DNA of 64,000 nucleotides from a phage: the sequence record PZ534534.1; one strand, 5' to 3'. Both the position numbers and the translations under genes were made by a program. The notes beneath the pieces were generated by a model that saw only the letters and a list, made by a program, of their open reading frames with translations, was not told the DNA's origin and did not search any database. Positions within the stretch are counted from its first letter, which is position 1, and each line of letters opens with the position of its first letter. Below, piece after piece: positions 20,186 to 40,859 of this stretch.

Positions 20186-21070
20186 ATGCCAAGCAATATA
20201 GTTGATGAAAAAGACCTGTACAAGCCTCAAGAGGTTAAATCTCCAAAGGCTGAAAAGGCAGAGCAGCAAACTGAAAGCGATGTAAAGTACACTATGTTTG
20301 TCAGCGGTCTTAACTATGGTGGTCGCAATACGGAGATGAAGGGTAAAAACTTTACTAACGATCTTGCCATTATCTTCGACCAGGTTGAGAACTATTCTTT
20401 CAAACATTCTGTTGATAAAACTAGTTTTGCAGTGGAAGATAAGTCTACCCTGTCAGACCACGCTGTAATTAAAGATGGTGTATTTTCTTTTACTGGTAGG
20501 GTAAATACATCACCACATATAATCTATGAGCAAAACTACATTGACAGGAATACTGACTCTAAAAACCCTGCAGCATCTATGCGACCGGGCGCTGCACTGG
20601 AGGCTTTGACTGAGATCATTAATAAGCGCCAATTGGTTTCTTTGGTTACCGAGGAAAGACTCCTTGAGAACTACATTATAACCAGCCTTTCTGCCAGCAA
20701 GTCTGTTGGTGAAGGTGCTGCAATGGTTTTTGATGTAGAACTTACAGAGTTCCGCACATTCTACTTGAACAAGGTTGTTAATGCAACTGTATACAGCAAT
20801 CCTAAGAAAGTAGGCAAGACCCAACAAAAAGGTGCTGTCAACGACTGTAAGAATGGTAGTAACGTAGGTAACAAGAGGGACACAGGAGCATTCGCAGACA
20901 CTGCATCCACAAATGCTGCAGAGGAGTGGCAGCCATACAAATCCATGATGTGGACAGATGAAAACGGTGTTACCCAATCGGCTGCGGATTGGTATTATCA
21001 GGAATATGGAAGACCTTCTACCATAGTCCCATCTGAGCAGGGGAACTACAACAAAGTTAACGGGAAATAA
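20186..21070 (+). CDS. hypothetical baseplate/distal tail protein
   Basis: ATG at 20186 with GGAGAGG RBS (ORF track start 20159); first gene after the tape measure. Confidence 0.4.
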   Translation: MPSNIVDEKDLYKPQEVKSPKAEKAEQQTESDVKYTMFVSGLNYGGRNTEMKGKNFTNDLAIIFDQVENYSFKHSVDKTSFAVEDKSTLSDHAVIKDGVFSFTGRVNTSPHIIYEQNYIDRNTDSKNPAASMRPGAALEALTEIINKRQLVSLVTEERLLENYIITSLSASKSVGEGAAMVFDVELTEFRTFYLNKVVNATVYSNPKKVGKTQQKGAVNDCKNGSNVGNKRDTGAFADTASTNAAEEWQPYKSMMWTDENGVTQSAADWYYQEYGRPSTIVPSEQGNYNKVNGK

Positions 21071-21082
21071 GGGGAGCGTATA

Positions 21083-21463
21083 ATGGAGCTTAAAGATTGG
21101 TGCATAATCACCTTTGTGTGGGACATTGACGGCTTTCCTGATCAAACCATGCGTGTTGTTTTAGACAACGAAACGTATGAAATGCGTATGCAATGGAATG
21201 AGAGGGATGAGTCCTGGTGGTTATCTCTTGGTCCGGTAGGTGACAGCCCTTTAGTAACCAGAAAAGTAACAGCTTGTCAAGATATTTTAGACGGACTGCA
21301 TTACCGAGATGATTTACCGAAAGGTAGACTGATGGCGCTGTCGTTTAAAGACGATCAATATTGGGGCAGGGTTGGAAGATATAACCTTGGGGCGAGATCT
21401 GAGCTACAACTTGTATACGGCACCCCGGTTGATCTTTACAAGGAACAGCAAGGGTTAGAATAA
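21083..21463 (+). CDS. hypothetical baseplate protein
   Basis: 126 aa, tightly packed with flanking baseplate genes. Confidence 0.4.
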   Translation: MELKDWCIITFVWDIDGFPDQTMRVVLDNETYEMRMQWNERDESWWLSLGPVGDSPLVTRKVTACQDILDGLHYRDDLPKGRLMALSFKDDQYWGRVGRYNLGARSELQLVYGTPVDLYKEQQGLE

Positions 21464-22467
21464 TGGCGGAGTACAGACGTAGAACATGGCGATTATTGTT
21501 TGGTCGTCCTGTAGAACATGGCGGTAAATCAAAAACCAATATCCCAAAATCTGTTGAAAAGAAAGGGGAGAGTGATTCCGGAGTTTATGAAGTTAGCTCT
21601 GACACTGGTGCTGCCAATATAGAGTTTGACATACAAAAGGATAATACCAAAGAGCCAAACAAAGGTTATGTGACAGTTTACAACCTGTCTGACGATACAG
21701 TTAACTATCTGGATATGCATCAGGCTGATGCCCTTGCAGTTATGTTTGAAGCTGGATATGATGATGAGAACCAGTTAATATTCTCCGGAACTGTAGAGTT
21801 TGTTGAAGACAGATGGGAAGGTCCGACCAGAAAAACTAAGTTCATCTTTGGAGATGGTACTGAGAACATTATTAAGTGCCAAAGCACAAGATCTTATCAG
21901 AAAGGTACACCTCTGAACTCTGTGCTTAATGACCTGCTGAAGGATATGAACTTGCCAAAAGGTAGGGTTGTGGGTTTTGGAAACCAGACTTTGCAATACT
22001 CTATGGCTTTCTCTGGAAACACTGCAGAGAACCTCCGCAGGTTTGCAAGGCTGACCAACTCCACATTTAGCGTTCAGGATGGAGCTTTGTATTGGACCAA
22101 GGTTGGAAAAAGGTTCAAAGACTCTGTGTTTGAAATAAGTGCAGAGTCTGGGATGCACGGATCGCCTACCCCTAAAAACCCAGAACCTGCTAAAAAACGA
22201 AAAGCTAAAGCTGCTGCCAAAGGCGGTTCGACATCTAAAAAGAAAAAGAAAAACCCGAGAGAGGATGTTGGCCTTACTGTAACCACATGCCTTAACGGAG
22301 CTATCCTCCCAGAGTCCACTATTTATCTTAAAAGCAAGCAATATACAGGATTCTATAAGGTGATCACGGTGCATCATAAGGGCACCATAGAAGGAGGTGA
22401 TTACACTACAGAGCTTGGCCTTGGGGAAACAGTGGGTGGAGTTGTTGACAAAACTGAGGAGGTATAA
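21463..22467 (+). CDS. baseplate hub-like protein (putative)
   Basis: 334 aa, position upstream of the spike gene; Lys-rich internal linker. Confidence 0.35.
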   Translation: MAEYRRRTWRLLFGRPVEHGGKSKTNIPKSVEKKGESDSGVYEVSSDTGAANIEFDIQKDNTKEPNKGYVTVYNLSDDTVNYLDMHQADALAVMFEAGYDDENQLIFSGTVEFVEDRWEGPTRKTKFIFGDGTENIIKCQSTRSYQKGTPLNSVLNDLLKDMNLPKGRVVGFGNQTLQYSMAFSGNTAENLRRFARLTNSTFSVQDGALYWTKVGKRFKDSVFEISAESGMHGSPTPKNPEPAKKRKAKAAAKGGSTSKKKKKNPREDVGLTVTTCLNGAILPESTIYLKSKQYTGFYKVITVHHKGTIEGGDYTTELGLGETVGGVVDKTEEV

Positions 22468-23144
22468 TGGCAATAAATAGGAAAGATGCTGCTGTAAGAT
22501 CCTTCATAGAAAAAATAATGAGGGACTACCACACCAGTATCAGGGCCAGAGTTGTCAGTGTAGACTACAGTATCCCTTCTGCATCTGTGCAGCCAATAGC
22601 TGAAACCACGTTTGATGACGGAGATGTGGAGAGATACCCCCTTATCTATGACGTTCCAATTCAGGTGATGTCTGCAAACAGCGGAAAGGCAAGGTTAACA
22701 CTTCCTATTAAGGCCGGAGATGTTGTAGGATTGCAGTTTTCAGAGAGGAATGAAAACAATAACGACGATCAACAAACTCACGGCCTGTTTCCAGGGTGGG
22801 CAATCACCTCCGTTCATTCAGACTCAAACGCTTTACAGATCGATCCTGATAACGTAGAGTTATGGAATGATAGGGTTTATTTTAAACTGACACCTTCTGG
22901 CGATTTTGAGCTTCAGACACCGGGTGGAACATTACGGTGCGACAGCAGCGGGGAGTTTTCTTTCACTAACGGTGCTGCCAATTTGCGAGCTGCTGTGGAT
23001 GGAAATATCAGAATGAATGGTGCCACAATAGACCCATCTGGTAGAATTATAACTGCTGCTGGCGTGGATTTGGATTCATTCTATGCAGAATATAAAGGTC
23101 ATACCCACTCTTGCCCTGATGGCGAGACAAGTGGACCGCACTAA
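22467..23144 (+). CDS. baseplate central spike protein (P2 gpV / Mu gp45-like, putative)
   Basis: 225 aa; beta-rich spike-like sequence ending in a His/Cys-rich apex motif (YKGHTHSCPDGETSGPH). Confidence 0.5.
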   Translation: MAINRKDAAVRSFIEKIMRDYHTSIRARVVSVDYSIPSASVQPIAETTFDDGDVERYPLIYDVPIQVMSANSGKARLTLPIKAGDVVGLQFSERNENNNDDQQTHGLFPGWAITSVHSDSNALQIDPDNVELWNDRVYFKLTPSGDFELQTPGGTLRCDSSGEFSFTNGAANLRAAVDGNIRMNGATIDPSGRIITAAGVDLDSFYAEYKGHTHSCPDGETSGPH

Positions 23145-23156: not shown

Positions 23157-23873
23157 ATGGCTACGCTTTATAGTGATATATTGATGGACCCACAGACAGG
23201 CGATTTGGCGATAGACAAAGGTCTTGAGTTGATAGATTCAAACCAGGTAAGTCTGCGCCAGCGCTTGTGGATGAGATTTAATACGTGGAAGGGGAGCTGG
23301 TACTTTGACGAGCTGTTTGGCTTCCCTTATATGGACTTTCTCAGCAAGAAGGTCATGAAGACTGTTCTTGATAACAAGATTATGGAAGTGGCAAGACAAG
23401 AGCCGGATGTGCTAAACATCATAAACTTCCAATCCACCATGGATAGAAGATCGAGAACATACCAAGCGTTCTTTGAGGTTGTTACCAAAGAGAACGAGAT
23501 TGTAAGGCTGGCTTTTGTAGGTCTTGATCAGTTCACCTACCCACAGCCTGATTCTGGGACAACCTCCCTCTGTGATGATGAGGGTTGGATTAAGTGGGCT
23601 AATAAACTGTACTATCTGATCAACTTCAGATTGCCTAGAACCGGAGATGCCACATGGTGGAACCAGTATGCTGGTCCTGAGATGGAAAACCCGATCCCTG
23701 TAGGCTCTCTGTTGACTCAGGATAAAGATCTGCTGATGACTGAGGCAGAACAAACCATTAACCGCAATACCTGGACGCTTGCTCCAGATGAGCGCGAATA
23801 CTCTGGTGTTATTGCTACCTCCAATGATGAGGCTATTGCCAACCAGTCTGGTCGTGCTATTGATGTTAACTAA
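23157..23873 (+). CDS. hypothetical baseplate protein
   Basis: 238 aa in baseplate gene run. Confidence 0.35.
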   Translation: MATLYSDILMDPQTGDLAIDKGLELIDSNQVSLRQRLWMRFNTWKGSWYFDELFGFPYMDFLSKKVMKTVLDNKIMEVARQEPDVLNIINFQSTMDRRSRTYQAFFEVVTKENEIVRLAFVGLDQFTYPQPDSGTTSLCDDEGWIKWANKLYYLINFRLPRTGDATWWNQYAGPEMENPIPVGSLLTQDKDLLMTEAEQTINRNTWTLAPDEREYSGVIATSNDEAIANQSGRAIDVN

Positions 23874-23882: not shown

Positions 23883-24551
23883 ATGGCTGTAGCTTATCCT
23901 ACAATACCAATTCCAGATCTTGAAGATGCAGAAACAGTCCTGAGTGATGACTTCTTGGTTGTCAACCAGACTGATGGGACAAGAAAGGCTAAGATTGACG
24001 ATGTTGTCAACGATCTTAGCATCACTAAGATAGTCTATTTCACAGAGGGTGGTTATCTTAAGAGCAAGAAGGACTTTGCTTATGATCCAGAAACTAAGCG
24101 CTACTACACGTGGAACGGGGATTATCCTAAAATAATCCTCCCAGACTCCACTGTAGAGGGTGCTGGGGGTGTGTCTGCAAATGCCTGGTCTGTTTTTGGT
24201 GAGCTTGCTGCAACTTCTTCTGGCAGAATAGTTGATTACGGATCTATCGGTGGTCAGCTTGATATGGATCTTGAAGTTGCGGATACCTTTAAGGTTCGAC
24301 TAACTTCAAATACCACAATCTCTTTTGAAAATCAAACAGAAGGTCTTGAAGGGGTGGCGAGGACTATAACCGTATGCATTACTCAGACCTCTGGCGGCAA
24401 CAAAGTCTATTGGCCTGGTAATGTTAAATGGTCCTACGGAAGAGATCCTATCCTAACATTTACAGCTGGTGCAACAGATATTTTCAAGTTGGAAACCTAC
24501 GACAACGGGTTAACTTGGTACGGGGCACTGATTATCGCAGGAGCTATCTAA
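23883..24551 (+). CDS. receptor-binding protein with conserved N-terminal particle-anchor domain
   Basis: N-terminal 100 aa share a recognisable pattern with the N-terminus of the 27186 fibre (F.EGG.L....DFAY.......Y.W.G..P...P). Confidence 0.5.
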   Translation: MAVAYPTIPIPDLEDAETVLSDDFLVVNQTDGTRKAKIDDVVNDLSITKIVYFTEGGYLKSKKDFAYDPETKRYYTWNGDYPKIILPDSTVEGAGGVSANAWSVFGELAATSSGRIVDYGSIGGQLDMDLEVADTFKVRLTSNTTISFENQTEGLEGVARTITVCITQTSGGNKVYWPGNVKWSYGRDPILTFTAGATDIFKLETYDNGLTWYGALIIAGAI

Positions 24552-24552
24552 G

Positions 24553-27150
24553 ATGCGTATTCAACACAACATTGATAACGTATTTCAGATGATTGAGGGG
24601 CACAGGAAGTGCCTCGATAACAACACAGGTATTACCAACACACCTACACAAAATAAGCTAGTAAACCCTGATGGTCTTATAGCTGCAGGGTGGGCAGGTA
24701 ATAAGATAAATAACGATTGGGCAATGCATGAGTCCCAAGCTGTGTTGATTCTGGGATACATTGAAGCATACAGGGCATCGAAAAGCGATTTCTATCTGGA
24801 TAGGGCAAAAGATGCTTGGGAAGCTTACAATAGTCATCTTCTGGGTGCATATGCCGTAGAAAGTAAAATGCAAAGATTGTCCCACTACCCTCTATCCACA
24901 GATGGGGTTCCATCACACGGTGGGTTTAAAGATGTGGTGGTGTCTTTTACCAACGGTAGAGGAAAAATCCCAGCTGGATCTCCGACATGGGGGGAATACC
25001 TGGACAAGGCATTCCAAGCGTATAACGGTGTGTTAGGAAGAAACACTGTAGACTCTGATGTTTACGGTGGCACAGATGCTAACCCAGATTGGACAACATC
25101 CGGATTAAGTTGGTGGGTTGAGTGGTACATAGCATGGGATGGTAACCGCTATTGGGCTAACGGTAGCATAGCCGACAGTGGTCATACGTCTGTAGAGTTC
25201 GGCACAATCCAATTACAAGATAAGGGTGTTACAGGCAGCCACAAGGTGACCTATTGTGTAAGATTACCTCAGGAGCAGGGTGGATCGGTGATACCTGCAG
25301 GATCCCCTGTAATTGTAAATCCTATAAACGTGGTTGCAGATAATCAGGCCCCAGAGTTGGACGGGGAAGAAATGTGGTGTGACGCTTGTTATCAACTCTA
25401 CACCTTGACAGGTGAGGAAAAGTATTACACCGCGTTTGAACAGTCTTACAACAAACTGCTTAATTTCAGTGATATAAACGCCTACGACAAATTGTTTAGA
25501 AAGACCACGTTGATTAAGGCACCGTTTACAGATGGTACTTGTCTTGTTGCAGGAACAGTTCCTGTCATGAGCAGGGACAGTGACGGGTATATCAATTTTA
25601 GAATGAACGCACGCCAGCCTTGCGAAATAATCCAAAAAGGGACTACATACAAAATAGGCAGAGATGCTGAAATTGTTATGAATTTCGGAGGAGAGGGGGT
25701 TCTGTTCCAGCCACATTTCATCCTTAATGATGGCAACAATAACAAAAAACAGTACAGGATAGGGGTTCCTTTTGGAAGGGCAGAGGTAACAGAAATAGTT
25801 GCCAAGGTTACCGATTTCGTAGAGGTGGTTGGTAAAGACGGTAATCCGTATCTCTTACCTAAAGAGGAAAACATTGCCGTAAGCGGTGGTGCTAGTGTTA
25901 GTATGCAGTATGATACCGACATTTACAACCACTCTGACAACTTCACCCGTTGTAATATAGCAAGAGGTAAAGTAACTTTCAATTTTGGAAGAGAGATTTC
26001 TTTAAACTCAGTAACTTATCGATCAGATGATGAGATGGTAAGGGTCAAATTTCTTGACAAAGACAGGTGGTTATGGTATGCTGATCTATATGCCACCAAT
26101 GGACAATGGATAACAGAAACTCTTACTCTAGGAGATTTCAAACTAGATCCGACACAACCTCATCACACCGAAGAAGAGATTAAACCTTTCTTTGCTAATC
26201 CTAAGGGACTAACCTCTGTAGATTTCAGTCTAAGCGACAGGCAGATAGGTAATGGCTTGTTTGATCTGTATTGCGTCAACACGCTGCCGCAATTCTATAT
26301 TGCAGATAGGGATGCTTATCTAATCTGGTTTAGCGTGTGGATGGCAAGCAAGACAGAATCAACCGCTAAGGTTGGCGATTGCTATGTCAGAAACTACAAG
26401 CAAGGTGCATACAGGCACACACCGGGTGTGTTCCCTGCCGGAAAGGTGATAGATAAGGAAAACTATCTCTTAGAGGAAAAGCCAAATTGGCCCTACCCTG
26501 GCATGCAATACCCAGCAGTCTACTGCATGGGTGCAGAAAACATAGATCGCCATAGATTGTCAAATACAATAGGCTTTCTGTATGACGCTCAAGTCTGGTA
26601 TAATAATACATTTAGGACAGAGGGTCCAGTTGCCTCACGTTATGTATGGCAGAGAGGCAATGAAGGGTTGACTGGTTGGTGGGAGATGGTAGATAACTCT
26701 AAGCTCCAGTCAAGATCTTTTGTTGCTGCGTGCCGCACAATATATGAGCTCAAGAAACATAAAGAACCTGTTGATGAAAGACTGTTCCTGTTCTGCCAGA
26801 AATGGGCATGGTTCCTCAACAGATTCCAGTCATCTCATTCAGGAAATCTGCCTACAGACTTTAACACCTCTGGGGGATACTCTTATCAAGACAGAGGGGA
26901 CAGGATGTGGGTGGTAGGTGAATGGCTTGCAGGTTGCTGCTGGCTAGGTCTGTGCGGGTATTCAGAGACAATACCTCAAATAGATATTGTTGTAGAAGCC
27001 TGTGTGAAGCTACTGCAAAAGCACCACTTCATTAATGGGGATAATATTTTAAACGGCTGCTGGGCAGTTTCTGATCCGGTTGGCTATCACTCTGGCGAAA
27101 TCCTTCGCGGTCTGGGTCTTTATGCTCAATACCGTGGATTGTACCTTTAA
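24553..27150 (+). CDS. large tail-associated protein, putative polysaccharide depolymerase (tailspike-like)
   Basis: 865 aa immediately following the anchor-domain protein; Trp/Tyr-rich sequence suggestive of a carbohydrate-active fold; function inferred, not demonstrated. Confidence 0.4.
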   Translation: MRIQHNIDNVFQMIEGHRKCLDNNTGITNTPTQNKLVNPDGLIAAGWAGNKINNDWAMHESQAVLILGYIEAYRASKSDFYLDRAKDAWEAYNSHLLGAYAVESKMQRLSHYPLSTDGVPSHGGFKDVVVSFTNGRGKIPAGSPTWGEYLDKAFQAYNGVLGRNTVDSDVYGGTDANPDWTTSGLSWWVEWYIAWDGNRYWANGSIADSGHTSVEFGTIQLQDKGVTGSHKVTYCVRLPQEQGGSVIPAGSPVIVNPINVVADNQAPELDGEEMWCDACYQLYTLTGEEKYYTAFEQSYNKLLNFSDINAYDKLFRKTTLIKAPFTDGTCLVAGTVPVMSRDSDGYINFRMNARQPCEIIQKGTTYKIGRDAEIVMNFGGEGVLFQPHFILNDGNNNKKQYRIGVPFGRAEVTEIVAKVTDFVEVVGKDGNPYLLPKEENIAVSGGASVSMQYDTDIYNHSDNFTRCNIARGKVTFNFGREISLNSVTYRSDDEMVRVKFLDKDRWLWYADLYATNGQWITETLTLGDFKLDPTQPHHTEEEIKPFFANPKGLTSVDFSLSDRQIGNGLFDLYCVNTLPQFYIADRDAYLIWFSVWMASKTESTAKVGDCYVRNYKQGAYRHTPGVFPAGKVIDKENYLLEEKPNWPYPGMQYPAVYCMGAENIDRHRLSNTIGFLYDAQVWYNNTFRTEGPVASRYVWQRGNEGLTGWWEMVDNSKLQSRSFVAACRTIYELKKHKEPVDERLFLFCQKWAWFLNRFQSSHSGNLPTDFNTSGGYSYQDRGDRMWVVGEWLAGCCWLGLCGYSETIPQIDIVVEACVKLLQKHHFINGDNILNGCWAVSDPVGYHSGEILRGLGLYAQYRGLYL

Positions 27151-27154
27151 CATA

Positions 27155-27175
27155 GGGGGCTGTTTGCCCCCTTTC
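27155..27175 (+). terminator. rho-independent terminator
   Basis: Hairpin GGGGGCtgtttGCCCCC followed by TTT. Confidence 0.55.
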
Positions 27176-27185
27176 AGGAGAAAGA

Positions 27186-30100
27186 ATGGCTGATATTAAA
27201 GTTGTCAGAATTGAATCTCTTCCTGCCACTACCGCAGTGACAGAGGATGATTACCTGGTTGTTCAACAACCAGACCTGACTCGTCGTGTAAAAATTGGCG
27301 ATGTTGTCCATGTGGATGGGACTGTTTCTCATGTAATCTCCTTTAAGGAAGGTGGTAAGTTAAACGGCCCAATGGATTTTGCCTACTTCGAAGAGGAAGA
27401 CCTCTACCTGCGTTGGAAAGGCGAATTTCCACACACTGTTCCTGCACTGTCTTCACCGTACGCTGATGGTGGGATTACTGACGCTGCATGGATGGTATAT
27501 ACTGACCCGTCCCTAAGGGAGGAGCTGGAATCTACCATTGGCGCATCTATGATCATGACAGCCGAAGGGCAGTCTGTCCAGGATGTAATGGATGTTACTG
27601 TTCAGACAGCTAACGATGCTAAAGCACTTGCACAGCGTGTAGATTTTGGTACAGTGCACACTGTAGGCGATGTTATTCACCTTGATAACTTTGTTGGCCC
27701 TGCAGTTATTGAAGAGGGAAGAACTACCAACTACCCTTCTGTAGCAGCTGGTGAAAAATTTCTGAACGGTGTGGTATCTCGTCGTGATACTACAACTGTT
27801 GATGGTATTTTCCGTGGCGCTACCACCGGAGCTATGTACACCATTGCAGTAACCAACGGTGTAGCAACAACAAAAAGAATAGCACTTCGTGATGAATTTA
27901 AACGCCTAGAGACAAATAACCCAACAAGAACAGTTATCCGTGCTGGAGATGATTTAAATACGGCAGGGTACTTGCAGCTTGATGCAACAGGCCGTTGGGG
28001 TATGTGGAACCAACAAACAGCTTCGTGGCAACCTCTTGCTATAGAGCAAGGCGGCACAGGGGCTAGAGATGCCGCTGGAGTCCGTATCAATATCGGTGCT
28101 TTCTATAAGCAGCGTGCTGCGCTTGATGCAAATTTCAATATCAATAATTTGACTGGTAATCAGGATGGTATATACTACCAGCCGATGACTGCTAATGCAA
28201 CTGAGGCAAATGGTTACCCTGCAGGTTCTGGTGCTGGTCACTTGATTGTTTGGCAGAACAATGCTAACGGCGGTACAGGGTGTCGTCAGGAATACTATCC
28301 ATTCTCTAACGTAGATGTTTGGTATTTGAGAACCTATCAGGCCAACACAAATCAGTGGACTGCATGGCAGCCGATGGTCAGACCTCGTAACGATGATACC
28401 TTCAGATCTCATATTGGCCTTGGTAAAAACAACTCGCCAGCCTTCGGGCACCTTTACTTAGCTCAATACTCGGGAGATGTTAAATCGGCCTCAGGTATTC
28501 TCCATGGAGATAAATATAATACTGACGGTGTCCTTGAGCATGGATATAGGATCTATTCTGAGGTAAGAAACGACAATAAGGCTTGGTTGACAATCCACCT
28601 GCACAAAGGTGCAAAAGGATCTGAAACTCATAGATATTTAGGTTTACGCGAAGACGGCGTGTTAGACTGCCCTAAATACATGCAGGTTGGGGATCTTACT
28701 GGTCAGCTGACAAACTGGGGACTTGGAGAGTGGATTCGTAGTTCAGGAGCAGAAAGAGGCTTCTGGGGGTCCAAGAAAGCCGCCAAGATGGTCGTCTGGG
28801 ATGGTGGGATGGATGAGTCCGGTAACGGCACTCTGGAATGGGGTGTTTATAACAACCGGAAGGCCAAGTGGGAACCTTTATCTCACGCCGCAGGTGGCAC
28901 TGGGGCTACAACCCTGGCAGATGCTCAGAATCTGTTCAAAGTTCCTATAGCTGCGGGTGTCAAAGATTTCTTAACACTGCCAAGAACTGCAGGGATGGAA
29001 GATGGGAAATACTACCCAATCATCGTTAGAACAGATCCGTACTATGCTCCAGCAACTGGTACTGATATTACCATAGTTACCAGATCGTCATCCGGCAGTG
29101 ACCCTATGAACTGCGCTACTCTGCAGTGCCATTACAGAACTGGGGGCTGGACAGACAGAGGAGACTCTTTCTACGGGGTAGTAAATTTCTACCAGAATGA
29201 AAAAGCACTTCTTGGGATGGTTGCTCCAACAAGGGGTAAACAAGAGTATGTTGCTTTCTATGTAGAGGCTCGTGCTTTCCCTGTCAGCGTATACGCAAGT
29301 AGAAATGTTGTAGAAGTGTTTACCAGAGAGCAAGATTACCAGGTCGGAGCTGTAACAGACAATCAGGACGGTGTTAAGTTTGTTGCGCCTCTCCAGTCAG
29401 CAGATTTGAATCTTGCTGTTCTTGGAGATAACAATACCAACACCAGACCTATTGTTGACTTCAAAGGTACCTCTGGGTTCTACACTGGCGGCGGCACACA
29501 GTGGCACTATATAGGCACTGCTGAACGCTATGCGGTGATGAGCAAAATGAACATGCCTAAAGTCGAACTATGGGCTGACGGTATTGACTATTTGTGCTAT
29601 GGCAGCCCTAGAAAGGCGTTATTCTCTAATGCAGGATTCCAGTGTGCATCAGATGGAACAGAGGATCTAACTAACGGTACGTTTACCTCTAAATGCGGTA
29701 ATGGTGCTGGCCTCAAAGGTCAGGCAGAGTTCAGATCTACCCCAGAAGCTGGTCAAGTTATTGTTCGCGATGTTGTGGGCACAGCTCACAGATTCTACAA
29801 TTTCAACAAAGACGGTACTTTCTCGGCCCCTGGTGGTTTTGTATGTCATACTGGTGGAGACTGGAACAACCAGTTTGGGTCTAATAACCCGTCAAAAATA
29901 ATGGCGGGTAATGTTAACGGACCAGAAGGCTCGATGGTTGTTGGTGGACTGTCTGTGGCGTTCTCTGGAAACTATGCTTTCCAAATGGCTGGACGCCTTG
30001 ATCAGTTATACACCAGATCTATCGAGGGTGGTAACCATAGAGCGTGGAACAAGGTCATACAACACAGAGGGCAAGGTCTGGGGATTAATGACCTTAACGA

Positions 30101-31019: not shown

Positions 31020-31025
31020 TTTGTA

Positions 31026-31054: not shown

Positions 31055-31085
31055 AGCTATCATGATTGTTTAACCCGGAGGCACA

Positions 31086-31676: not shown

Positions 31677-31677
31677 G

Positions 31678-32654: not shown

Positions 32655-35600
32655 TGCCAATTGCAATGATTGATAACATCGTTGCTTCTGCAAGATCTTC
32701 AAGTTATGACTGGAACGCATCCAAGGCAGCTCTGGCTGACAGCCTGAACACTGTTACCACCAGAACTCTGGATAAGATTTTCGAGGGAAACAAATCTTAC
32801 AGAAGTCAGCAAGATAGACAAAAGCTTCTCAGATCTTCTGCTGCACCTTGCTCTGTAGTGTATGGGAAGACACGTACATCTGGATTGCTTGCGTTTTTGG
32901 AGCAGGACAGGGACAGAACCCTTCATTGTGCTATTGTTCTTGCCAATCACCCTCTGGAAGGTATAGAAGATATACTTATCGACGGTAATCCTATTTCTTC
33001 GTATGGGGATTTGGTATCGTGGGAGCTACATAACGATAGAAAAACCTCTGATCCTTTCATGGGCACACACTGCCCATCGTGGTCACCGGACATGATAGGT
33101 AGAGGGATCAGTTGGCTACGGGTCAGCTTTAGGTTTGACCCTAACAAGTTTCCTTTTGGGTTGCCAAACGTCACACTCGTCAAGGTTGGTAAAAAATGCT
33201 ATGATCCTCGCACTAGTAAAGAGGTGTATACCAATAACGCTGCCTTGGTGATTCTGGACTATTTAAGAACGTACCTTAAATGTCCTGACGAAACCATCAA
33301 CTGGGAGTCCTTCAAGGAGGCTGCCAACATATGCGACGAGGCTGTAAGAAACGCAGACGGAACCAGCGAGCGTCGTTACACAATTAATGGCGAGTTCGAT
33401 ATGGATGAGGCCCCAGCAAGTATTATGGCAGAAATGCTGAAAGCTTGTGGCGCAGATCTCAGCTATGTAGCTGGTAAGTATGGTTTGCTGGTTGGTGCAT
33501 ACTATGGCCCGGCAACAATGACACTGAGTGAGGATTGTGTCTGTGGTGAGGTCAAGATCTACCCGGAAGCCTCATTTGACAAAAGATCCAACACAATAAC
33601 CGGCAGATTCACTAGTCCGACCAAAGGGTATTCTGAAACAGATTTTCCATCAGTGTTTGTCCCAGAGTGGATAGAGAAGGATGGAGAAAGAAAGATAATC
33701 GATATAGACTATCGCTTTGTTACCAGCCCTTATCAAGCTCAGCGTGTTTCTGCAATCTTCTTAAGACGCGCGAGAGCTGGCAGGATTATTGAAGTCACCT
33801 GCAATATGCGAGGTTTTAAATTTAAACCTGGTCGTTACGTTACAATGAACCTTCCAAGTATAGGTATAGTGGGCCAAGAAATGAGGGTTCTTGAATGGGA
33901 GTTTACCAAAAAGGGTGGTGTCAAGGTAAAACTTCGTCAAGATGCTAAAGAGTGGAATGATGCCACAGGGCAACTTCCGGATTCTGGCAATGTAGATATT
34001 CCGATATCTCCATCTGGTGTAGCTCAACCGCAAAACTTCAGATACTCCGTTCTCCAAGCTGGGGAAGTAACTCACGGTGTTTTGGCTTGGGACAACGTTG
34101 GGACTTACGCTCAAAATATTGTGCAGGTAAGAAAGAACGGAGAGATTGTTTGGACAGCACAGACAGTTGAGCAGTTTGTCAGAGTAGAAGGTTTGACCAA
34201 AGGGTCATACACAGCAACCGTGGTTGCAACATCTTATAAAGGTGGTGTATCTCCAGAAGCGTATTGTGAGTTTAACATTCAGGCACCTGAAGCTCCGGTT
34301 TCTGTAGAGGTTAAGCAAGGATACTTTGCTATCACCTTGATTCCGCATAGTAGGGATTTAGCAAGTGTTAGCACCCAGTATGACTTTTGGACATCCGGTA
34401 TGACAAGGTTGCCAGACACCAGTGATGCAACCGTTACTTCAAACGCCACCCGTATGGGTGTTGGTTCAACTTGGACATCTGAAGGTCTGCAGAACGATAA
34501 GGTTTATTATTGGTATATTCGAACCACAAACGCTTTTGGTAGTTCTCAGTTTGTAGAATGCGCTGCACGCTGCTACACCTCTATTGAGGATTTGATGCCT
34601 CAGATAGATGCTGAATTCAAAAAGACAGAAACTTATAAAGAGTTGATGAGCACTTTGGATTCCTCTATTGAAGAGGTTGAAAATCGTGTCACAGAACTTA
34701 ACAGGTACATGGATGGTAGGGTAGATGAAGCGTTCCAGCAACTTGGGGACAGAATAGGTGCGGTAGTTACAGAAACAACTCAGAAGTTTGAAGATGTCAA
34801 TGGTAACATTACAGCGCTGGATAGGAAACTTGTTGCTGCACAGAACAAATTCACCAACGATCTGAACACTGAAAGTGGCAGACTGGCATCTCTAATCGAG
34901 ACAACCAATAAAGCAACTACTGATCTTCTGAACAAAAAGACAGAGGCTTTAGATGAGAAATTGGTTGCCGCCAAAGGTGAGCTGGTAGAGCAGATAGGGG
35001 GAGTTGAGAGCGGGTATTTAGCCGGAGATAAAACTCTGGATGGTAAGATCAATACTCAGAGAACAGAACTTGACGCAAGCATCTTGAGCACTAACCAAGC
35101 CACTGTAGATCTTTTGAACAGGACATCTGAAACTCTGGATCAAAAGATTAGTCAGACAAACGCGACGGTATCTAAAAACTATACCACCCTTGACGGCAAG
35201 ATAACTACCGCAAAAACTGACCTCAACACCTTGATTGCCAATACCAACAAGGCCACCACTGACTTGTTGAATCAGAAAACATCTGCACTGTCAGAGCAAA
35301 TAACTTCTGCACGTGGGGAGATCTCTACCAACAAGCAAGCGATTGATGCTTTGGATGGAAAACTGACCTCCACAAAAACAGCGCTGGATGCTACAATTTC
35401 CGATACCAACAAAGCCACTGTGGACCTTATCAACGGCACAGCGTCAGCTATTCGTCAAGAACTTGCTGTCGCTAAGCAGGAGATCATCAATGATGTTGGG
35501 GATGTATCTGAGCTTAGGGCTGCAGTAGCTACAACATCTAAGGCTGTAACCGACTTAGAGGGTAAAGTAAATGCTCAATGGGGCACAAAAATACAGGTAG

Positions 35601-36493
35601 ACTCCGCAGGGAATAAATATGTTGCAGGTATCCAGTTGGGGATGGAAGGGTCTGGGGGCCAAGTTCAATCCTACTTCATGGTTAGTGCAAACAACTTTGC
35701 GGTATACAACCCCGGAAATGGAACAGCAACCCTTGCTTTCGCAATCAAGAACAACCAAGCGTTCTTGAAAGACGCTTTTATAGAGAATGGCACGATCTCT
35801 TCTGCCAAGATCGCACAAGAAATTTCGTCAAACAACTACGATGGCAACGGGTACCATAAATACGGTTGGTATATTAACAAGAACGGGCACGCCCAATTTA
35901 TGGATGTATGGGTGAAAGGCAACATCAACGCCAGTTCTGGTAACTTCACAGGGGCAGTTAACGCCACCAGTGGTACCTTCCGTGGGGATGTTTATGCCAA
36001 TAACGGTAGCTTTAGGGGCACCATAGATGCAACCGGAGGTACCTTCCGTGGGCGTGTAGAGGCTTCTGTTATTCGTGCTAACCAGTTCGAAGGTGCAATA
36101 GTTGCACACAAGACCTACGGTGACTGTCCTCCAGTATACAACTCTCAGCAGCAGGTTTGCCGTTGGAGATGGAGATACGTGGATAACGTTCAAGGACAAG
36201 GTAAGAACGTAACATTCTTCTTTAAGCTTAACGGAACTCTAGGAGGCTCCCAGTTGAATGTGTGGATAGCGGGGCACCAGTTGCTCGCTGGCAAGAAGTA
36301 TGGTAACGACAACGATGGTATGTGTGCAGTCGGGATAACAGGGCTGGGTGAACAGACCATAGACATTATTGTTGAAATTTACACACGCTGGTCCACCTCA
36401 GCTATAACAGGTGTTACAATATCCTGTCCTACTGTGATAGTAAGTCGTTCAAACTCTAGCTTCCAGGGACCTTGGAACGAGTCTCACGACTAA
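32654..36493 (+). CDS. host specificity / central tail fibre protein (lambda J-like)
   Basis: 1279 aa; blocks GYFAITLIPH, YYWYIRTTNAFGSSQFVE and WGTKIQVDSAGNKYVAGIQLGMEG...SANNFAVYNP match lambda J blocks recalled from memory; long heptad-like repeat region. Confidence 0.8.
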   Translation: MPIAMIDNIVASARSSSYDWNASKAALADSLNTVTTRTLDKIFEGNKSYRSQQDRQKLLRSSAAPCSVVYGKTRTSGLLAFLEQDRDRTLHCAIVLANHPLEGIEDILIDGNPISSYGDLVSWELHNDRKTSDPFMGTHCPSWSPDMIGRGISWLRVSFRFDPNKFPFGLPNVTLVKVGKKCYDPRTSKEVYTNNAALVILDYLRTYLKCPDETINWESFKEAANICDEAVRNADGTSERRYTINGEFDMDEAPASIMAEMLKACGADLSYVAGKYGLLVGAYYGPATMTLSEDCVCGEVKIYPEASFDKRSNTITGRFTSPTKGYSETDFPSVFVPEWIEKDGERKIIDIDYRFVTSPYQAQRVSAIFLRRARAGRIIEVTCNMRGFKFKPGRYVTMNLPSIGIVGQEMRVLEWEFTKKGGVKVKLRQDAKEWNDATGQLPDSGNVDIPISPSGVAQPQNFRYSVLQAGEVTHGVLAWDNVGTYAQNIVQVRKNGEIVWTAQTVEQFVRVEGLTKGSYTATVVATSYKGGVSPEAYCEFNIQAPEAPVSVEVKQGYFAITLIPHSRDLASVSTQYDFWTSGMTRLPDTSDATVTSNATRMGVGSTWTSEGLQNDKVYYWYIRTTNAFGSSQFVECAARCYTSIEDLMPQIDAEFKKTETYKELMSTLDSSIEEVENRVTELNRYMDGRVDEAFQQLGDRIGAVVTETTQKFEDVNGNITALDRKLVAAQNKFTNDLNTESGRLASLIETTNKATTDLLNKKTEALDEKLVAAKGELVEQIGGVESGYLAGDKTLDGKINTQRTELDASILSTNQATVDLLNRTSETLDQKISQTNATVSKNYTTLDGKITTAKTDLNTLIANTNKATTDLLNQKTSALSEQITSARGEISTNKQAIDALDGKLTSTKTALDATISDTNKATVDLINGTASAIRQELAVAKQEIINDVGDVSELRAAVATTSKAVTDLEGKVNAQWGTKIQVDSAGNKYVAGIQLGMEGSGGQVQSYFMVSANNFAVYNPGNGTATLAFAIKNNQAFLKDAFIENGTISSAKIAQEISSNNYDGNGYHKYGWYINKNGHAQFMDVWVKGNINASSGNFTGAVNATSGTFRGDVYANNGSFRGTIDATGGTFRGRVEASVIRANQFEGAIVAHKTYGDCPPVYNSQQQVCRWRWRYVDNVQGQGKNVTFFFKLNGTLGGSQLNVWIAGHQLLAGKKYGNDNDGMCAVGITGLGEQTIDIIVEIYTRWSTSAITGVTISCPTVIVSRSNSSFQGPWNESHD

Positions 36494-36502
36494 CCTTTAA
36501 AG

Positions 36503-36528
36503 CCCCGCTTCGGCGGGGTTTATTTTTA
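36503..36528 (+). terminator. rho-independent terminator (CGCTTCGGCG family)
   Basis: Perfect hairpin CCCCGCttcgGCGGGG followed by TTTATTTTTAT. Confidence 0.75.
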
Positions 36529-36536
36529 TGCTCAGA

Positions 36537-36565
36537 TTGACTATTGTTACAAAATTTGGTAAAAT
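36537..36565 (+). promoter_or_regulatory. sigma70-like promoter (TTGACT-17-TAAAAT, TGGTAAAATA family)
   Basis: Near-consensus hexamers, 17-nt spacer. Confidence 0.55.
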
Positions 36566-36598
36566 ACCTTGTAGAGATTTTCATACCGGAGGAGTGAC

Positions 36599-38089
36599 GT
36601 GGCTAAGTATGGATTGACAGAGGCTGGTTTCGTTATACCAACCCTAAATGACCTAATCGTTGAAACTAAGCAAAGCCTGATCCGTGCTTTTGGCGAAAAC
36701 TTCAACGTACAGAGTAACTCCGTTGCAGATAAGCTGACCACTATCTTCAACGAGCGAGAGTATCAACTTATTCTTATGGCAGCATCTGTATACGCATCAC
36801 AGACGCTGTATGGGGCAGAAGGTATTTACCTAGATGAGCTTCTTGGAAGACAAGGTATTTACCGAAGAGGCCGTTCTAAATCATCAGGTACCTGCCAGTT
36901 GACAATCAACACAACTGTGCCGTACAATATGATTTATGATTCCAAAACTTATACGCTGGACAGTGGCAACTTTGTTCTTAGCAACGATGTGCAAGTAGCA
37001 GGGAATCTTATTGCTCACAGAATAAATGCCCCAGACCTAAGGATTGGTAAATACAACTTTCAAATTACCAACCAGACAGATGGAAGTATCAAAACAAAAA
37101 GTCTGGTTTTAACAGATAAGTCTCTGGACTCTTCTGATCTGCCAAGCTTTTACGGAGAGATTAAGCAGTTCATTGTCGATAATACAACCCTGTTGAACGA
37201 CGATTTGATTCAGATAGATATGTTGACAGGAACGTTGTGGATAGGGTACAATTCGAATCTTGATCAAGTTGGACTTAATAGTAGAGTAGATTTCAGAGTA
37301 TCCCCGATTGTAGGGGAAAGAACTATCACACTGGATGTTATCGCTAACGAGGCGGGTGAGTTGTCAAGAGAGGCAGAAACCGTGACAACAATGTCACCTA
37401 CTCCCAGTGGATTTATCAAGCTTACCAACCGAGAAAGATTCAATGAGGGCAGGGATGTTGAGAAAGACTCAGAGTATCGCTTAAGAGCTTCCAGCACAAA
37501 ACAGTTAACATCTAAGGCTACCCGTCCTGCAATCCTTAGCGCTGTAAGCGAGGTGAAAGGTGTTGAGAAAGTGAGAGTGTTCTCCAATAACACCGATAAA
37601 ACTGATGCTAAAGGTATACCCCCTTACAAGTTCCAAGTGGTTGTGTTTGGTGGTGCAACGGAAGACATTTGCCAAGCACTTTACCAAACTATAGCCTGTA
37701 CGAACAGGACTTATGGTAATATTTTCTACGATGTCACTACATCTGACGGTCAAACTGAAAGAATTTATTACTCCAAGGCAAACACCTACCGCCTAGATGT
37801 AAGAATTACCTACTCCGGTGCTGCGCTTTCTACAACCGAAAAAGATGCCATTATAGAGGCTCTTTTGCAGGTTGTTAACGGACTGGATGTTGCAGATACG
37901 TTGTATAATATCCAATTGGTAGGTGCTGCATCTGCTGCTGTGTCAATAGGCAGATTTAATAGGCTGGTAATTCAAGTTAAATCCGTAGGAGCTTCTGATG
38001 AAGCTTACACTACAAACGATATTGTTGCGAACATGACCGAGGTGTTTGACCTCGACGAAAGTAATATAACTTTCCAACAAACTATTTAA
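36599..38089 (+). CDS. baseplate J-like protein (Mu gp47 / P2 gpJ family, putative)
   Basis: 496 aa; N-terminal block ...LYGAEGIYLDELLGRQGIYRRGRSKSSG... resembles the conserved baseplate-J signature; GTG start with GGAGGAG RBS. Confidence 0.6.
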   Translation: MAKYGLTEAGFVIPTLNDLIVETKQSLIRAFGENFNVQSNSVADKLTTIFNEREYQLILMAASVYASQTLYGAEGIYLDELLGRQGIYRRGRSKSSGTCQLTINTTVPYNMIYDSKTYTLDSGNFVLSNDVQVAGNLIAHRINAPDLRIGKYNFQITNQTDGSIKTKSLVLTDKSLDSSDLPSFYGEIKQFIVDNTTLLNDDLIQIDMLTGTLWIGYNSNLDQVGLNSRVDFRVSPIVGERTITLDVIANEAGELSREAETVTTMSPTPSGFIKLTNRERFNEGRDVEKDSEYRLRASSTKQLTSKATRPAILSAVSEVKGVEKVRVFSNNTDKTDAKGIPPYKFQVVVFGGATEDICQALYQTIACTNRTYGNIFYDVTTSDGQTERIYYSKANTYRLDVRITYSGAALSTTEKDAIIEALLQVVNGLDVADTLYNIQLVGAASAAVSIGRFNRLVIQVKSVGASDEAYTTNDIVANMTEVFDLDESNITFQQTI

Positions 38090-38100
38090 GGCGGCGAGAT

Positions 38101-38787
38101 ATGGCAGAGATTAAGTCGGATGTTAACCACATCCACACTCTGCCAGATTTTGTTCAGGGAGGTCTTGACTACCTGCCTGGAGATTTTCTGGCTGAGAAGG
38201 TTAATTTAGTCACATTCTTAACCGTATACCTTAAAAGGTTGGAGGATGTTGATAAGATGCTGGTAGGTTTGGCTGAAGGAAGATTGCTTAACAATGCCAG
38301 CGGAAGATACCTTGACGAAGTTGGTAATCAACTTGGTATTCTTAGGAATGGACTTTCAGATGCTGATTTTCGTGCCACACTAATTATTCAGCAGGCCGCA
38401 GCATCAAGGGGCGGGACTCGCGAAGATGTCATCTCCACCTTGCGACAATTGTTCGGAAGAGACAATTTCGATACGTGGAAAGGAGACAACTTCAGGTTTG
38501 ACATAAATATTAGAAAAACTTGCTTTGACATATTGCAGTCTATCGATCAGATCTTAGATATGCTACCATTACCTTGTCATTTGCGTCTTACAGAATCGCA
38601 AGGGCAAGCTTTTGGTTTTGAAGGGGACTCTACAGCTCTTGGCTTCGGATCAGTGTGGGAAGAAAACCAATTCGGAGTTGGTGGGCTGGCTACTTTGCTG
38701 TATGTTCCTGACGTAAGACCTGATTGGGACACCACAACCATTTATTGTGAAAGTATTACAGTAAACGCAACTAGACAGGAGGGTTAA
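38101..38787 (+). CDS. baseplate wedge protein (P2 gpI / Mu gp48-like, putative)
   Basis: 228 aa immediately after baseplate J-like gene, conserved gene order. Confidence 0.45.
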   Translation: MAEIKSDVNHIHTLPDFVQGGLDYLPGDFLAEKVNLVTFLTVYLKRLEDVDKMLVGLAEGRLLNNASGRYLDEVGNQLGILRNGLSDADFRATLIIQQAAASRGGTREDVISTLRQLFGRDNFDTWKGDNFRFDINIRKTCFDILQSIDQILDMLPLPCHLRLTESQGQAFGFEGDSTALGFGSVWEENQFGVGGLATLLYVPDVRPDWDTTTIYCESITVNATRQEG

Positions 38788-40859
38788 TGGCAACAGCTAT
38801 TTTTAAACCTTACCGTGATTACTCTACAATGGCTGCACGGTTTCATTACCGCACAGTTCAGGATACTGCCGTTCCTGGTAGGGATTATAATCATGTTGAG
38901 GGTGATGTAACTATCCCAATTGGGGCAACCAGTATTGAGATCCCAGTGGAAATTGTTGACAAATTACCCAACAGGTTGCCAAGAAGCTTCTTTATGGAGT
39001 TTTCATCAAAATCTCAAGGGGTGATGATTGGAACACAAAGGGCGAAATGTACAATAGTTTCAGATGAGAATCTTGACAGGATATCTTGGGATACTGTTGA
39101 GGAGAGAATGTTTCACCCAAGGTATTGGGTTACAACTACTCAGCAGACTGAAAGTACCTGTATTGTTGCAGATAACAACTGTTGTATTAACCGTTTAGTG
39201 TCAAGAACATATGGAGGTATGGCTGGGTGCATTTGGGAAACAGTTGACAAGTATGACCATTTCGGTATTGGGTTTGATGATCACTATGAGATGAGAAACA
39301 CCAAGCTTTGGTTCAGAATGTCAATAACCAATGCCAGCAACTTCTCCACCCCTGAAAAGATGATTATGACTGTAGACCTTGTTGATGGCACAATCATCTA
39401 TGTTCCTTTAGCTCAATATGCTGTCAGCATCTCAGAGGATAAGAATGTTGCAGAGATTCATATTGATTTCGAGGACTGCGTCGGGATGGATCAGAACAAC
39501 AACATGATGGGTGTTGATCCTCGACAGGTGAGAAGGATTTTAATACCGCTTATGCCTAAAGACTGGGTAAGTAATAGCACAGACCCGAGAACGGAAAATG
39601 TAGAGTGTGAGTTGCGCCTAGATCTGCTCCAGCCAGACACAGGCTGGAAAATGATGCAACTTAACAATATTCAGGTTAAAGAGCACGACGTTGGGATCTG
39701 CACCGCATATGACGATATGTGGAACGTATCTCCTTTAAGGGTGTTGAACAATATCAAGCGTCTGGGCTATACCGGAACCATAAACCATTATGTTGGTATG
39801 AGTCATTATTATGACTACACATGGTCAGGAACCCAATGGTCTATAAACAGAACAGGGGCGCTAAACGCTGCAGCTTATAAATGGCATGATGATTTTATGT
39901 ACAATGCCAAACGACATAACTTCGACGTTATGCAATCTGTAAGTTTTGAGCTTTTCAGCGATGCCTGCCCGTTGGAATGGACCCAAAGAGACTGGAACGA
40001 TAACTACGCTAAAACAGGGTATACACCCTGTAGCTACCTCCTGTCTCCAACCATTGAAGAGGGTATGAATTTCCTTACTGCAGTATTTAAGAATTTTGCA
40101 TCAGCCGCTATGAGAAACAACCTGCCAGTGATTATGCAGGTTGGTGAACCGTGGTGGTGGTACAATACCGATACTCGTAGACCTTGTATTTATGATTACC
40201 CTACAAAGCAGGCGTTTTATGATGAGACAGGTGAGTATGCATTAGATATTGGGACTATTGACGATCCTAAAACTGGCGGTGTTTACGACAAGTATGTAGC
40301 ATTTTGTCGTGGTAAGCTTGGCGCTCGTATTGCGGCCATTTCAAAGGCAATAAAGGCACACGCTGCATCAGCTCAGATGACAGCTCTGCTGTTTTTCCCA
40401 ACCATTATGGAAACAGAGCTTACGCAAAAGCTGAACCTTGCTGACCAATATAAAAAAGAAGCAGGTGCTCTTGATTTCTTCTGCACCGAGTGCTACGATT
40501 GGGTGATGCAGGGAGGTATTGAAAAGGCAAAAGAGTCTGTAAACATACCTATCGTTAAGTTAGGTTGGCAACCGTCTGAAATACAATACCTTGCAGGGTT
40601 CGTTCCTAGTAAAGAGCTTGCTCCGGTATATGGCTACGACCCAACCAGGAATTACCAAGAATTTTTATGGAGATGTATCTGCGGAAACATGGCAACCATA
40701 GAGTATAGATACCCTGAGGTAAAACAGTATGTGTGGGCATACCCGCAAGTAATGTCTGACAGCATCACTGTTACAGCCAGAGATTCTACCGTGCTTCATA
40801 TGGGGCAGGTTGCTCTGAAAGGGTATGTAGAAGATGTTGTCCCTCCAGACTTCTCATAA
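38787..40859 (+). CDS. tail fibre/spike protein with N-terminal Calx-beta-like domain and putative glycosidase-like C-terminal domain
   Basis: N-terminal pattern DYNHVEGDVTIPIGATSIEIPVEIVDKLPN resembles Calx-beta; Trp-rich C-terminal region (QVGEPWWWYNTD). Confidence 0.4.
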   Translation: MATAIFKPYRDYSTMAARFHYRTVQDTAVPGRDYNHVEGDVTIPIGATSIEIPVEIVDKLPNRLPRSFFMEFSSKSQGVMIGTQRAKCTIVSDENLDRISWDTVEERMFHPRYWVTTTQQTESTCIVADNNCCINRLVSRTYGGMAGCIWETVDKYDHFGIGFDDHYEMRNTKLWFRMSITNASNFSTPEKMIMTVDLVDGTIIYVPLAQYAVSISEDKNVAEIHIDFEDCVGMDQNNNMMGVDPRQVRRILIPLMPKDWVSNSTDPRTENVECELRLDLLQPDTGWKMMQLNNIQVKEHDVGICTAYDDMWNVSPLRVLNNIKRLGYTGTINHYVGMSHYYDYTWSGTQWSINRTGALNAAAYKWHDDFMYNAKRHNFDVMQSVSFELFSDACPLEWTQRDWNDNYAKTGYTPCSYLLSPTIEEGMNFLTAVFKNFASAAMRNNLPVIMQVGEPWWWYNTDTRRPCIYDYPTKQAFYDETGEYALDIGTIDDPKTGGVYDKYVAFCRGKLGARIAAISKAIKAHAASAQMTALLFFPTIMETELTQKLNLADQYKKEAGALDFFCTECYDWVMQGGIEKAKESVNIPIVKLGWQPSEIQYLAGFVPSKELAPVYGYDPTRNYQEFLWRCICGNMATIEYRYPEVKQYVWAYPQVMSDSITVTARDSTVLHMGQVALKGYVEDVVPPDFS

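Follow-up and report, generated by a model that had tools for sequence, protein, structure and literature searches.

Tip complexes made of a distal tail protein (Dit), a hub and a J protein are usually seen, together with contractile baseplates, as alternative solutions to one job. In the phage sequence PZ534534.1, of which a stretch of 64,000 nucleotides was analysed as a whole (the window), genes for both lie in a single operon. The locus raises the question of how a siphovirus-type tip module, at positions 31086–36493, came to stand among the genes of a contractile baseplate, and of what it does there. An earlier note on this DNA had described the co-occurrence of the two architectures in one tail gene set and had suggested modular acquisition. 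The co-occurrence is borne out: contractile baseplate genes and a complete siphovirus tip module share one operon, and the coordinates in that note all correspond to real genes of the kind named there. The window comes from an rV5-like Vequintavirus. Its segment 31000–40900 is 97% identical in DNA sequence to Escherichia phage rV5 and, in a comparison with a phage database, to more than 100 other Vequintavirus genomes, and the plus-strand open reading frames (ORFs) map one to one onto rV5 gp53 to gp27. Genes are called by their rV5 names below; those so named, and the terminators and promoter-like sites, all lie on the plus strand.

Composition of the tail-tip cassette

The cassette (31086–36493) encodes a Dit, a hub-1 protein, a DUF6950 protein and the J-like gp37, collinear with the genes that follow the tape measure in siphoviruses. 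The equivalent of gp37 (32654–36493; 1,279 amino acids) was examined along its length. At its N terminus are gp27-like, siphovirus-type baseplate-hub domains (residues 1–490; 32654–34123; 49% identical to the J protein of HdK1): a profile of residues 1–500 matches the T5 hub protein pb3 (E = 2e-11), and the Pfam family Phage-tail_3 reaches just E = 0.09, below its cutoff. For gp37, the rV5 paper (PMC3606486) reported COG4733 and HHpred hits to Mu-type hubs. Residues 493–652 (34130–34609) form the Ig/FN3-like domains of the J family, with Ig_J_second above its cutoff (E = 1.2e-30) and Ig_J below it (24.8 bits; cutoff, 29), and align with lambda J residues 666–838. A helical, coiled-coil-like shaft follows (residues ~653–956; 34610–35521), which varies in length between alleles and gives weak matches to helical-repeat families; a coiled coil has been noted previously (PMC12143355). 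The last part (residues 957–1279; 35522–36493) contains the tail-tip fibre domain PF09327 (Phage_Tail_Tip; E = 1.2e-38, 132 bits; cutoff, 22), is matched by PDB fragments of the lambda J C terminus (E = 6e-24) and ends in ~130 variable residues, the putative receptor-binding end.

The lambda J blocks that the earlier note had recognized in this protein are thus confirmed by Phage_Tail_Tip, by Ig_J_second and by the match of gp37 to lambda J in the PDB (E = 1.5e-28). Taken with the pb3 match at the N terminus, these domains make gp37 a full hub-plus-fibre protein, which is more than a fibre with J-like blocks. Its context departs from that of the family, whose members follow the tape measure and the minor tail genes and close a non-contractile tube. 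Gp37 does have minor tail genes upstream, yet a fibre gene precedes the cassette, and the sole tape measure of the region (gp49; 17743–20079; so annotated in rV5 and in MaxBurger) is that of the contractile tail; none of the window's ORFs is a second tape measure beside the J module. Gp37 is therefore a member of the J family by sequence and fold, used in a non-canonical context.

The three small genes upstream of gp37, taken earlier for minor tail genes, are real members of the J cassette; they encode a Dit, a gpL-class hub-1 protein and a DUF6950 protein and are not literal homologues of lambda M, L and K at the sequence level. Searches of PDB sequences with gp40, gp39 and gp38, as single sequences and as seven-sequence profiles, gave nothing significant, and fold prediction was therefore used. 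The predicted fold of gp40 (31086–31676) has the two domains of a Dit, a tube-like ring domain and an OB-type domain, and on this model gp40 is a Dit of the T5 pb9 type. Gp39 (31678–32229) is assigned to the lambda gpL/DUF2163 class as hub-1; its predicted fold is a tandem tube-like β-barrel of the kind that forms a pseudo-hexameric trimer ring. By sequence, gp39 matches only phrog_2048 and has no Pfam hit and no PDB sequence or profile hit that would place it in a curated family. A homologue search with gp39 alone returned three near-identical proteins; alignments that included the siphovirus homologues had enough depth.

The third small protein, gp38 (32229–32654), is the only one of the three with a Pfam hit (DUF6950, E = 5e-34). 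Gp38 and its siphovirus homologues have invariant F-x-W-G-x-x-D-C-C-x-F (DCC..F) and RGD motifs, which recall NlpC/P60 peptidases. A His at the expected catalytic position is absent from all seven aligned DUF6950 sequences, and the single PDB match of gp38 is a weak one to MepS (E = 0.3). Gp38 possibly has an NlpC/P60-like fold that lacks the catalytic His, and the family may derive from NlpC/P60 in a non-catalytic or unusual form; a search of the literature on DUF6950 gave nothing useful.

The cassette was compared with known tail tips. HdK1 (Nonagvirus) has the same four genes in the same order and at near-identical sizes (196, 194, 144 and 1,042 amino acids), with identities to the window of 31% (Dit), 39% (hub-1), 45% (DUF6950) and 49% (J), and CAjan (Seuratvirus) is 55% identical to the N-terminal 500 residues of gp37. 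Two differences from these siphoviruses stand out: the helical shaft is much longer in gp37 (1,279 amino acids, compared with 1,042 for HdK1 J), and gp39 lacks a C-terminal tail that its siphovirus homologues conserve. The lambda tip (gpM–gpL–gpK–gpI–gpJ; 8iyk) differs more widely. There is no gpI homologue in the cassette, the small cassette proteins have no sequence-level similarity to their lambda counterparts, and, judging from length and alignment, the 183-residue gp39 has no apparent equivalent of the C-terminal Fe–S domain of gpL. The lambda Dit is the 109-residue gpM, whereas that of the window is of the two-domain T5 type. In T5 itself (pb9 Dit and pb3 hub; 4jmq, 7zhj), the hub is one chain of 949 residues, whereas in the window it is split between gp39 and gp37; T5 also has a protein of its own for the fibre (pb4) and another for receptor binding (pb5), whereas gp37 has its fibre fused to the hub, as in lambda J.

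Around the cassette, downstream of sheath, tube and tape measure genes, stands a contractile-tail minimal baseplate: hub, spike, sheath initiator and a pair of wedge proteins, a set known from the gp25, gp6, gp7, gp27 and gp5 classes of T4 and from W, J, I, D and V of P2. The sheath and tube genes are annotated at matching positions in rV5 and MaxBurger and give weak Pfam hits in the window (DUF3383, KPP10_Orf10). Next come the tube initiator (gp48, equivalent to phi92 gp135; 20186–21070, alternative start 20159; Pfam Dit_like, E = 8e-23), the role of which is taken from the phi92 structure paper, the baseplate plug (gp47; 21083–21463; Pfam Pam3_gp18, E = 3e-18) and the contractile-tail baseplate hub (gp46; 21463–22467; phrog_196 'baseplate hub', E = 8e-84). 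The spike-like protein with a His/Cys apex that had been described at 22467–23144 is the central spike (gp45, equivalent to the phi92 spike; Pfam PF18352, E = 1e-9); its C terminus, ...GHTHSCPDGETSGPH (GHTHSC), consists of an HxH motif with a Cys. The sheath initiator (gp44; 23157–23873) matches phrog_4233 and phrog_120, and its homologue in the divergent lineage described below (L008) matches PF10934 (Sheath_initiator).

Beyond the cassette, baseplate wedge 2 (gp36; 36599–38089), of the Baseplate_J/T4 gp6 class, scores 36.6 bits with Pfam Baseplate_J (cutoff, 21.1) and matches PhiTE wedge 2 (E = 1e-158) and phi92 gp145 (E = 1e-55). Baseplate wedge 1 (gp35; 38101–38787) matches PhiTE wedge 1 (E = 6e-67) and phi92 gp146 (E = 3e-23). 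Both wedge proteins had been proposed in the earlier note, and profile searches upheld the Baseplate_J homologue at 36599 together with the J homologue at 32654. Published structures of phi92 and PhiTE give these same roles to the baseplate proteins. In those baseplates (21vq, 9cuy, 9mjn) the tube initiator, plug, hub, spike, sheath initiator and wedges are orthologous to those of the window and follow the same gene order; the Dit/hub-1/J set occurs in neither the structures nor the phi92 gene order. Of the Mu/P2-type layout suggested before, the contractile type stands and the specific affiliation does not, as the nearest solved baseplates are those of the simple phi92/PhiTE (Vequintavirinae) type.

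Distribution, maintenance and regulation of the cassette

Collinear four-gene sets directly follow the tape measure in HdK1 (Nonagvirus), CAjan (Seuratvirus), Yersinia PY54, Serratia Serbin and Vibrio K396, and the individual genes are 31–55% identical to those of the window; JenK1 and 9g, grouped with HdK1, and Vibrio phages of the K396 type are also among the related bearers. In these siphoviruses the cassette, placed after the tape measure, is the sole tail tip. By contrast, in the window it follows a fibre gene, stands alongside a contractile hub and spike, and comes without the tape measure or tube that accompany it in Queuovirinae and related siphoviruses. The same gene set was found in metagenomic data. 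A scan of IMG/VR with the hub-1 alignment gave 80 loci, of which 77 were outside Vequintavirus and 70 of those could be parsed. The three Vequintavirus loci are 99–100% identical to the window, and the rest, at 40% identity or less, lie on contigs of siphovirus or prophage size. Homologues of gp38 and gp37 are also present at 78 of the 80 loci. Among the 70 parsed loci, an ORF of Dit size lies directly upstream in 68, and an ORF of at least 700 amino acids lies within three ORFs upstream in 63. Proteins homologous to the wedges, sheath initiator, hub and spike of rV5 were found only at the three Vequintavirus loci.

Among contractile-tailed phages, the cassette was found in Vequintavirus only. 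In the phage database, gp39 has homologues at 95% identity or more in 118 genomes (130–143 kb), and then none above ~40%; those at the lower identities come from siphoviruses and contigs of prophage size. The slot that the cassette occupies, between the sheath-initiator and wedge genes, is filled differently in relatives: Seunavirus 4MG has three fibre genes followed by the wedge genes, in ChuuTotoro, an unclassified member of the Vequintavirinae, two other genes lie there, phi92 has conventional fibre genes only, and in Septuagintavirus W70 the sheath initiator directly adjoins the wedge gene, with no fibre gene between them. The modelled baseplate of PhiTE contains no component of the cassette. 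An assembly artefact or chimeric contig was considered as a source of the arrangement and rejected, given that it recurs in over 110 independent genomes as well as in contigs from metagenomes.

The synteny comparison, with all four genes collinear with a Queuovirinae-like cassette and the module missing from sister genera of the subfamily, thus favours the modular acquisition proposed earlier. What was captured as a module is almost certainly the tail-tip cassette of a siphovirus in its complete form. Read most simply, the data point to one gain, at the root of the genus Vequintavirus, with a Queuovirinae-like lineage of coliphages as the donor and a hot-spot slot for fibre genes as the recipient site. 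Base composition is uninformative: the module has a GC content of 0.447, compared with 0.442 for the window, and since the candidate donor cassettes share this GC content, it provides no evidence on the direction or age of the transfer.

The cassette has also been maintained. A divergent Vequintavirus lineage (L008/L009), represented by contig JZQG01000004.1 of E. coli assembly GCA_002973135.1 and by read-archive contigs, has it at the same place. The structural proteins of this lineage are ~80–90% identical to those of the window, and its J-like protein is shorter, at 1,199 amino acids. Between lineage and window, amino acid identity is 82% for gp40, 87% for gp39, 60% for gp38 and 79% for gp37; synonymous divergence (dS) in the cassette is saturated and nonsynonymous divergence (dN) is 0.08–0.37, comparable to the flanking baseplate genes. 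Purifying selection on the cassette is strong. Across the alleles of the genus, gp37 is ~99% conserved over its first 650 residues and variable over its last ~130, and an indel of ~100 amino acids lies in the helical shaft, the coiled coil. BASEL independently names the gp37 gene as one of the genus's three variable fibre genes.

The promoter at 31026 and the terminator at 36503 that the earlier note had assigned to the module itself are supported as a sequence pattern. A strong intrinsic terminator upstream of the module (30994–31013; 8-bp stem with 7 GC pairs, and a T-run) has its core in common with the equally strong one that closes it (36500–36521; 9-bp stem and T-run). The promoter-like site before the cassette (31026–31054; TTGCGT-N17-TAAAAT) has an extended −10 element, TGGTAAAAT, with an upstream TG, and scores below the threshold of a generic scan; the site upstream of the wedge genes (36537–36565; TTGACT-N17-TAAAAT) agrees with the consensus at 10 of 12 positions and also has the TG. 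A generic sigma-70 scan of the window found 34 sites, compared with 35.5 in shuffled sequence, and missed the 31026 site; the argument for promoters is therefore built on the common motif TGGTAAAATA. Exact copies occur four times in the window, all on the plus strand (13382, 16903, 31046 and 36557), and one of them is the counterpart of P51, a promoter annotated in rV5. When a single mismatch is tolerated, the count rises to 20 (5.8 expected), 18 of which are on the plus strand. A GC-rich terminator hairpin precedes at least three of the sites, so that terminator and promoter form a reusable unit, and the two units flanking the cassette resemble one another and the unit upstream of the 4MG wedge gene. 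As a sequence pattern, TGGTAAAATA looks like the extended −10 element of the promoters of the phage's structural genes.

Possible roles of the cassette in the virion

The explanation that we favour, with a probability of about 0.6, combines capture of the cassette with its mounting off the tail axis as an extra receptor-binding fibre complex. An ancestor of Vequintavirus would have taken the whole Dit/hub-1/DUF6950/J block from a Queuovirinae-like siphovirus, and the block, which came without tape measure, chaperones or tube, would have entered a phi92/PhiTE-type operon at the fibre-gene position that separates the sheath initiator from the wedge genes. Expression together with the late structural genes is probable, because the phage's own terminator–promoter units flank the cassette. 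Gp37 would trimerise via its pb3-like hub domains and form, with gp39 and gp40, a tube-less tip complex, in which gp38 is possibly an assembly factor. This complex would carry the long coiled-coil fibre with its variable distal end and would serve as one more receptor-binding fibre, attached peripherally to the myovirus baseplate, and the hub, spike and sheath native to the phage would still deliver the DNA. The direct results are homology, fold, synteny, restriction to one taxon, purifying selection and the way in which alleles vary; we infer the stoichiometry of assembly, the attachment site and the role in receptor binding. That Dit, hub-1 and J would close into a free-standing tip in the absence of tape measure and tube, bolted to the baseplate as a receptor-binding organelle, is a bolder reading that we put forward tentatively, and it may well prove wrong.

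Several points weigh against this explanation. A tape measure is normally the core around which the tip complexes of siphoviruses assemble, and the cassette has none. Of the siphovirus residues that are at least 80% conserved, 9 of 29 in Dit and 16 of 37 in hub-1 are changed in the myovirus copies, and with the conserved C-terminal tail of hub-1 lost, the interfaces of gp40 and gp39 may differ in ways that cannot be predicted. These changes would fit altered contacts after the loss of tape measure and tube. The virion evidence from rV5 is thin: mass spectrometry (MS) of purified virions detected gp37 with four peptides and five spectra, one of them a good tryptic peptide, for a coverage of 4.2%, and gp38, gp39 and gp40 do not appear in the table of 19 proteins, several of which are dubious. 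In the cryo-electron microscopy of Bas49 and Bas54, three of nine annotated fibres were resolved and the gp37 fibre was not located; the authors of that work note a resemblance between one fibre of the Vequintavirinae and a central fibre of the Tempevirinae. Genetic screens with LL12, a relative of rV5, gave requirements in the lipopolysaccharide core only and no protein receptor. Among searchable publications, none places the cassette complex on the particle, and a literature search for a Queuovirinae tail-tip structure gave nothing useful.

The thinness of the virion evidence lends itself to another explanation, in which only gp37 enters the virion, as an ordinary trimeric side fibre, and gp40, gp39 and gp38 act only as assembly initiators or chaperones or occur in the virion as mere traces. 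In lambda, gpK is needed for tip assembly and is not a major virion component. The rV5 MS table, with gp37 in it and gp38–40 missing, is what this explanation would lead one to find; the loss of the hub-1 tail agrees with it too, as does the divergence of gp38, the fastest of the four. However, undisputed baseplate proteins are also missing from the table, which is therefore too shallow to exclude gp38–40 from the virion. Moreover, gp40 and gp39 are 82–87% conserved between the lineages, with low dN, as structural baseplate proteins are, and both keep ring-forming folds. We consider the restriction of the virion component to gp37 unlikely, though it deserves serious attention.

In every known homologue these proteins are axial, and the complex could instead sit on the axis here as well, with the Dit and hub rings surrounding or capping the spike in place of a tape measure and gp37 as a lambda-like central fibre, which would have to open or fall away before contraction. 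Complex and spike would both be trimeric, so their symmetries are compatible (and the spike might fit inside the rings), and the cassette has no recognizable fibre-adaptor domain such as Tail_spike_N. By contrast, in the phi92 and PhiTE baseplates inner wedge domains are packed on the hub and spike, and no central fibre was reported in the Bas49/Bas54 reconstructions, although a rigid axial complex would be the easiest to resolve. An axial position is accordingly improbable.

The want of an obvious adaptor to the myovirus baseplate, in what could be a self-contained assembly unit, would also suit a complex that is made and then freed when the cell lyses, to bind a structure on the host surface in soluble form, be it as adhesin or as decoy. 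We know of no precedent for such a release. The presence of a gp37 peptide in purified virions speaks against it, as does the position of the cassette inside the baseplate operon, flanked by the same regulatory units as the wedge genes, and we regard it as still more improbable than an axial tip. Finally, the cassette could be a passenger, or a relic in decay, and play no part in the virion, as the weak virion evidence and the fact that sister genera do without it might suggest; this is strongly disfavoured by four intact frames in more than 110 genomes, saturated dS with low dN, a promoter-like site and terminator of its own, variation concentrated in distal gp37 as expected of a receptor-binding protein, and gp37 peptides in virions.

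Surrounding genes and significance of the cassette

Directly before the cassette lie three fibre genes (gp43, gp42 and gp41; 23883–30986), which match Pfam Tail_spike_N and Peptidase_S74 and PHROG tail fibre families. Two of them have N-terminal adaptor domains of the TSP1/Gp66 type, and gp41 has the S74 chaperone domain. The sheath initiator that precedes them has 238 residues in the window; the PHROG profile extends no further than residue 205, and 4MG has a homologue of 205 residues. Because the C-terminal helix of the PhiTE sheath initiator joins the N-terminal bundle of a fibre, the extra ~33 residues may be a fibre-docking element.

On the other side, gp34 (38787–40859), a fibre or enzyme protein, adjoins the wedge genes and lies outside the J module. 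Besides a Calx-beta domain, it has the Pfam domains TIM-barrel_NCTSP (E = 4e-80) and NCTSP_N, which were defined on the 'non-contractile tail sheath' of podovirus N4, making it a second cross-morphotype piece in the operon. Homologues with ~43% identity occur in phAPEC8-like and phi92-like phages, and none is present at the corresponding position of 4MG. A role of gp34 as a Vequintavirus-specific partner of the module was rejected, as phi92-like and phAPEC8-like phages have gp34 without the module. Two paralogous short tail fibre genes follow (40872–41912 and 42924–43970; ~346 amino acids each), 42% identical to one another according to the rV5 paper (PMC3606486), with a lambda gpK-type tail fibre assembly protein (Caudo_TAP; 41927–42511) between them. 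At ~51000–58000 both GC skew and AT skew change sign, which fits a block of minus-strand genes after the fibre operon. About 18 records labelled 'Campylobacter phage' (MG0656xx; host C. jejuni) are 97% identical to 31000–40900 of the window, which points to wrong host labels or to coliphage contamination in those data.

In itself, the co-occurrence of the two architectures was already on record. A link between ORFs 37–40 and siphophage PY54 is made in the GenBank notes on rV5, and RefSeq names include 'central tail fiber J' for gp37, 'distal tail protein' for gp40 and 'tail protein' among the set; similarity at the gene level has been public since the rV5 genome was deposited. New here are the recognition of Dit and hub-1 by their folds, the movement of the whole post-tape-measure cassette as a unit, its restriction to a single genus and its maintenance under selection. 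The value added lies in the reading of the cassette as complete and in the structural question that this raises.

One virion lineage thus maintains both tip types under selection. Should the baseplate carry the tip complex, an assembly that depends on a tape measure can become autonomous, and a whole multi-protein organelle, beyond a receptor-binding domain, is transferable between tail types. Mounting would also give a concrete identity to one unassigned fibre of the rV5-like phages, which are of use in biocontrol and therapy. A closed, free-standing tip in this position would mean that, for the first time, a tail-tip machine in its entirety, as opposed to a fibre domain, is seen exapted as an accessory adhesin, and might provide a myovirus with a second receptor trigger in the style of lambda or T5. 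The cassette is a natural test bed for grafting siphovirus receptor specificities, in the form of Queuovirinae J alleles, onto a myovirus of broad host range.

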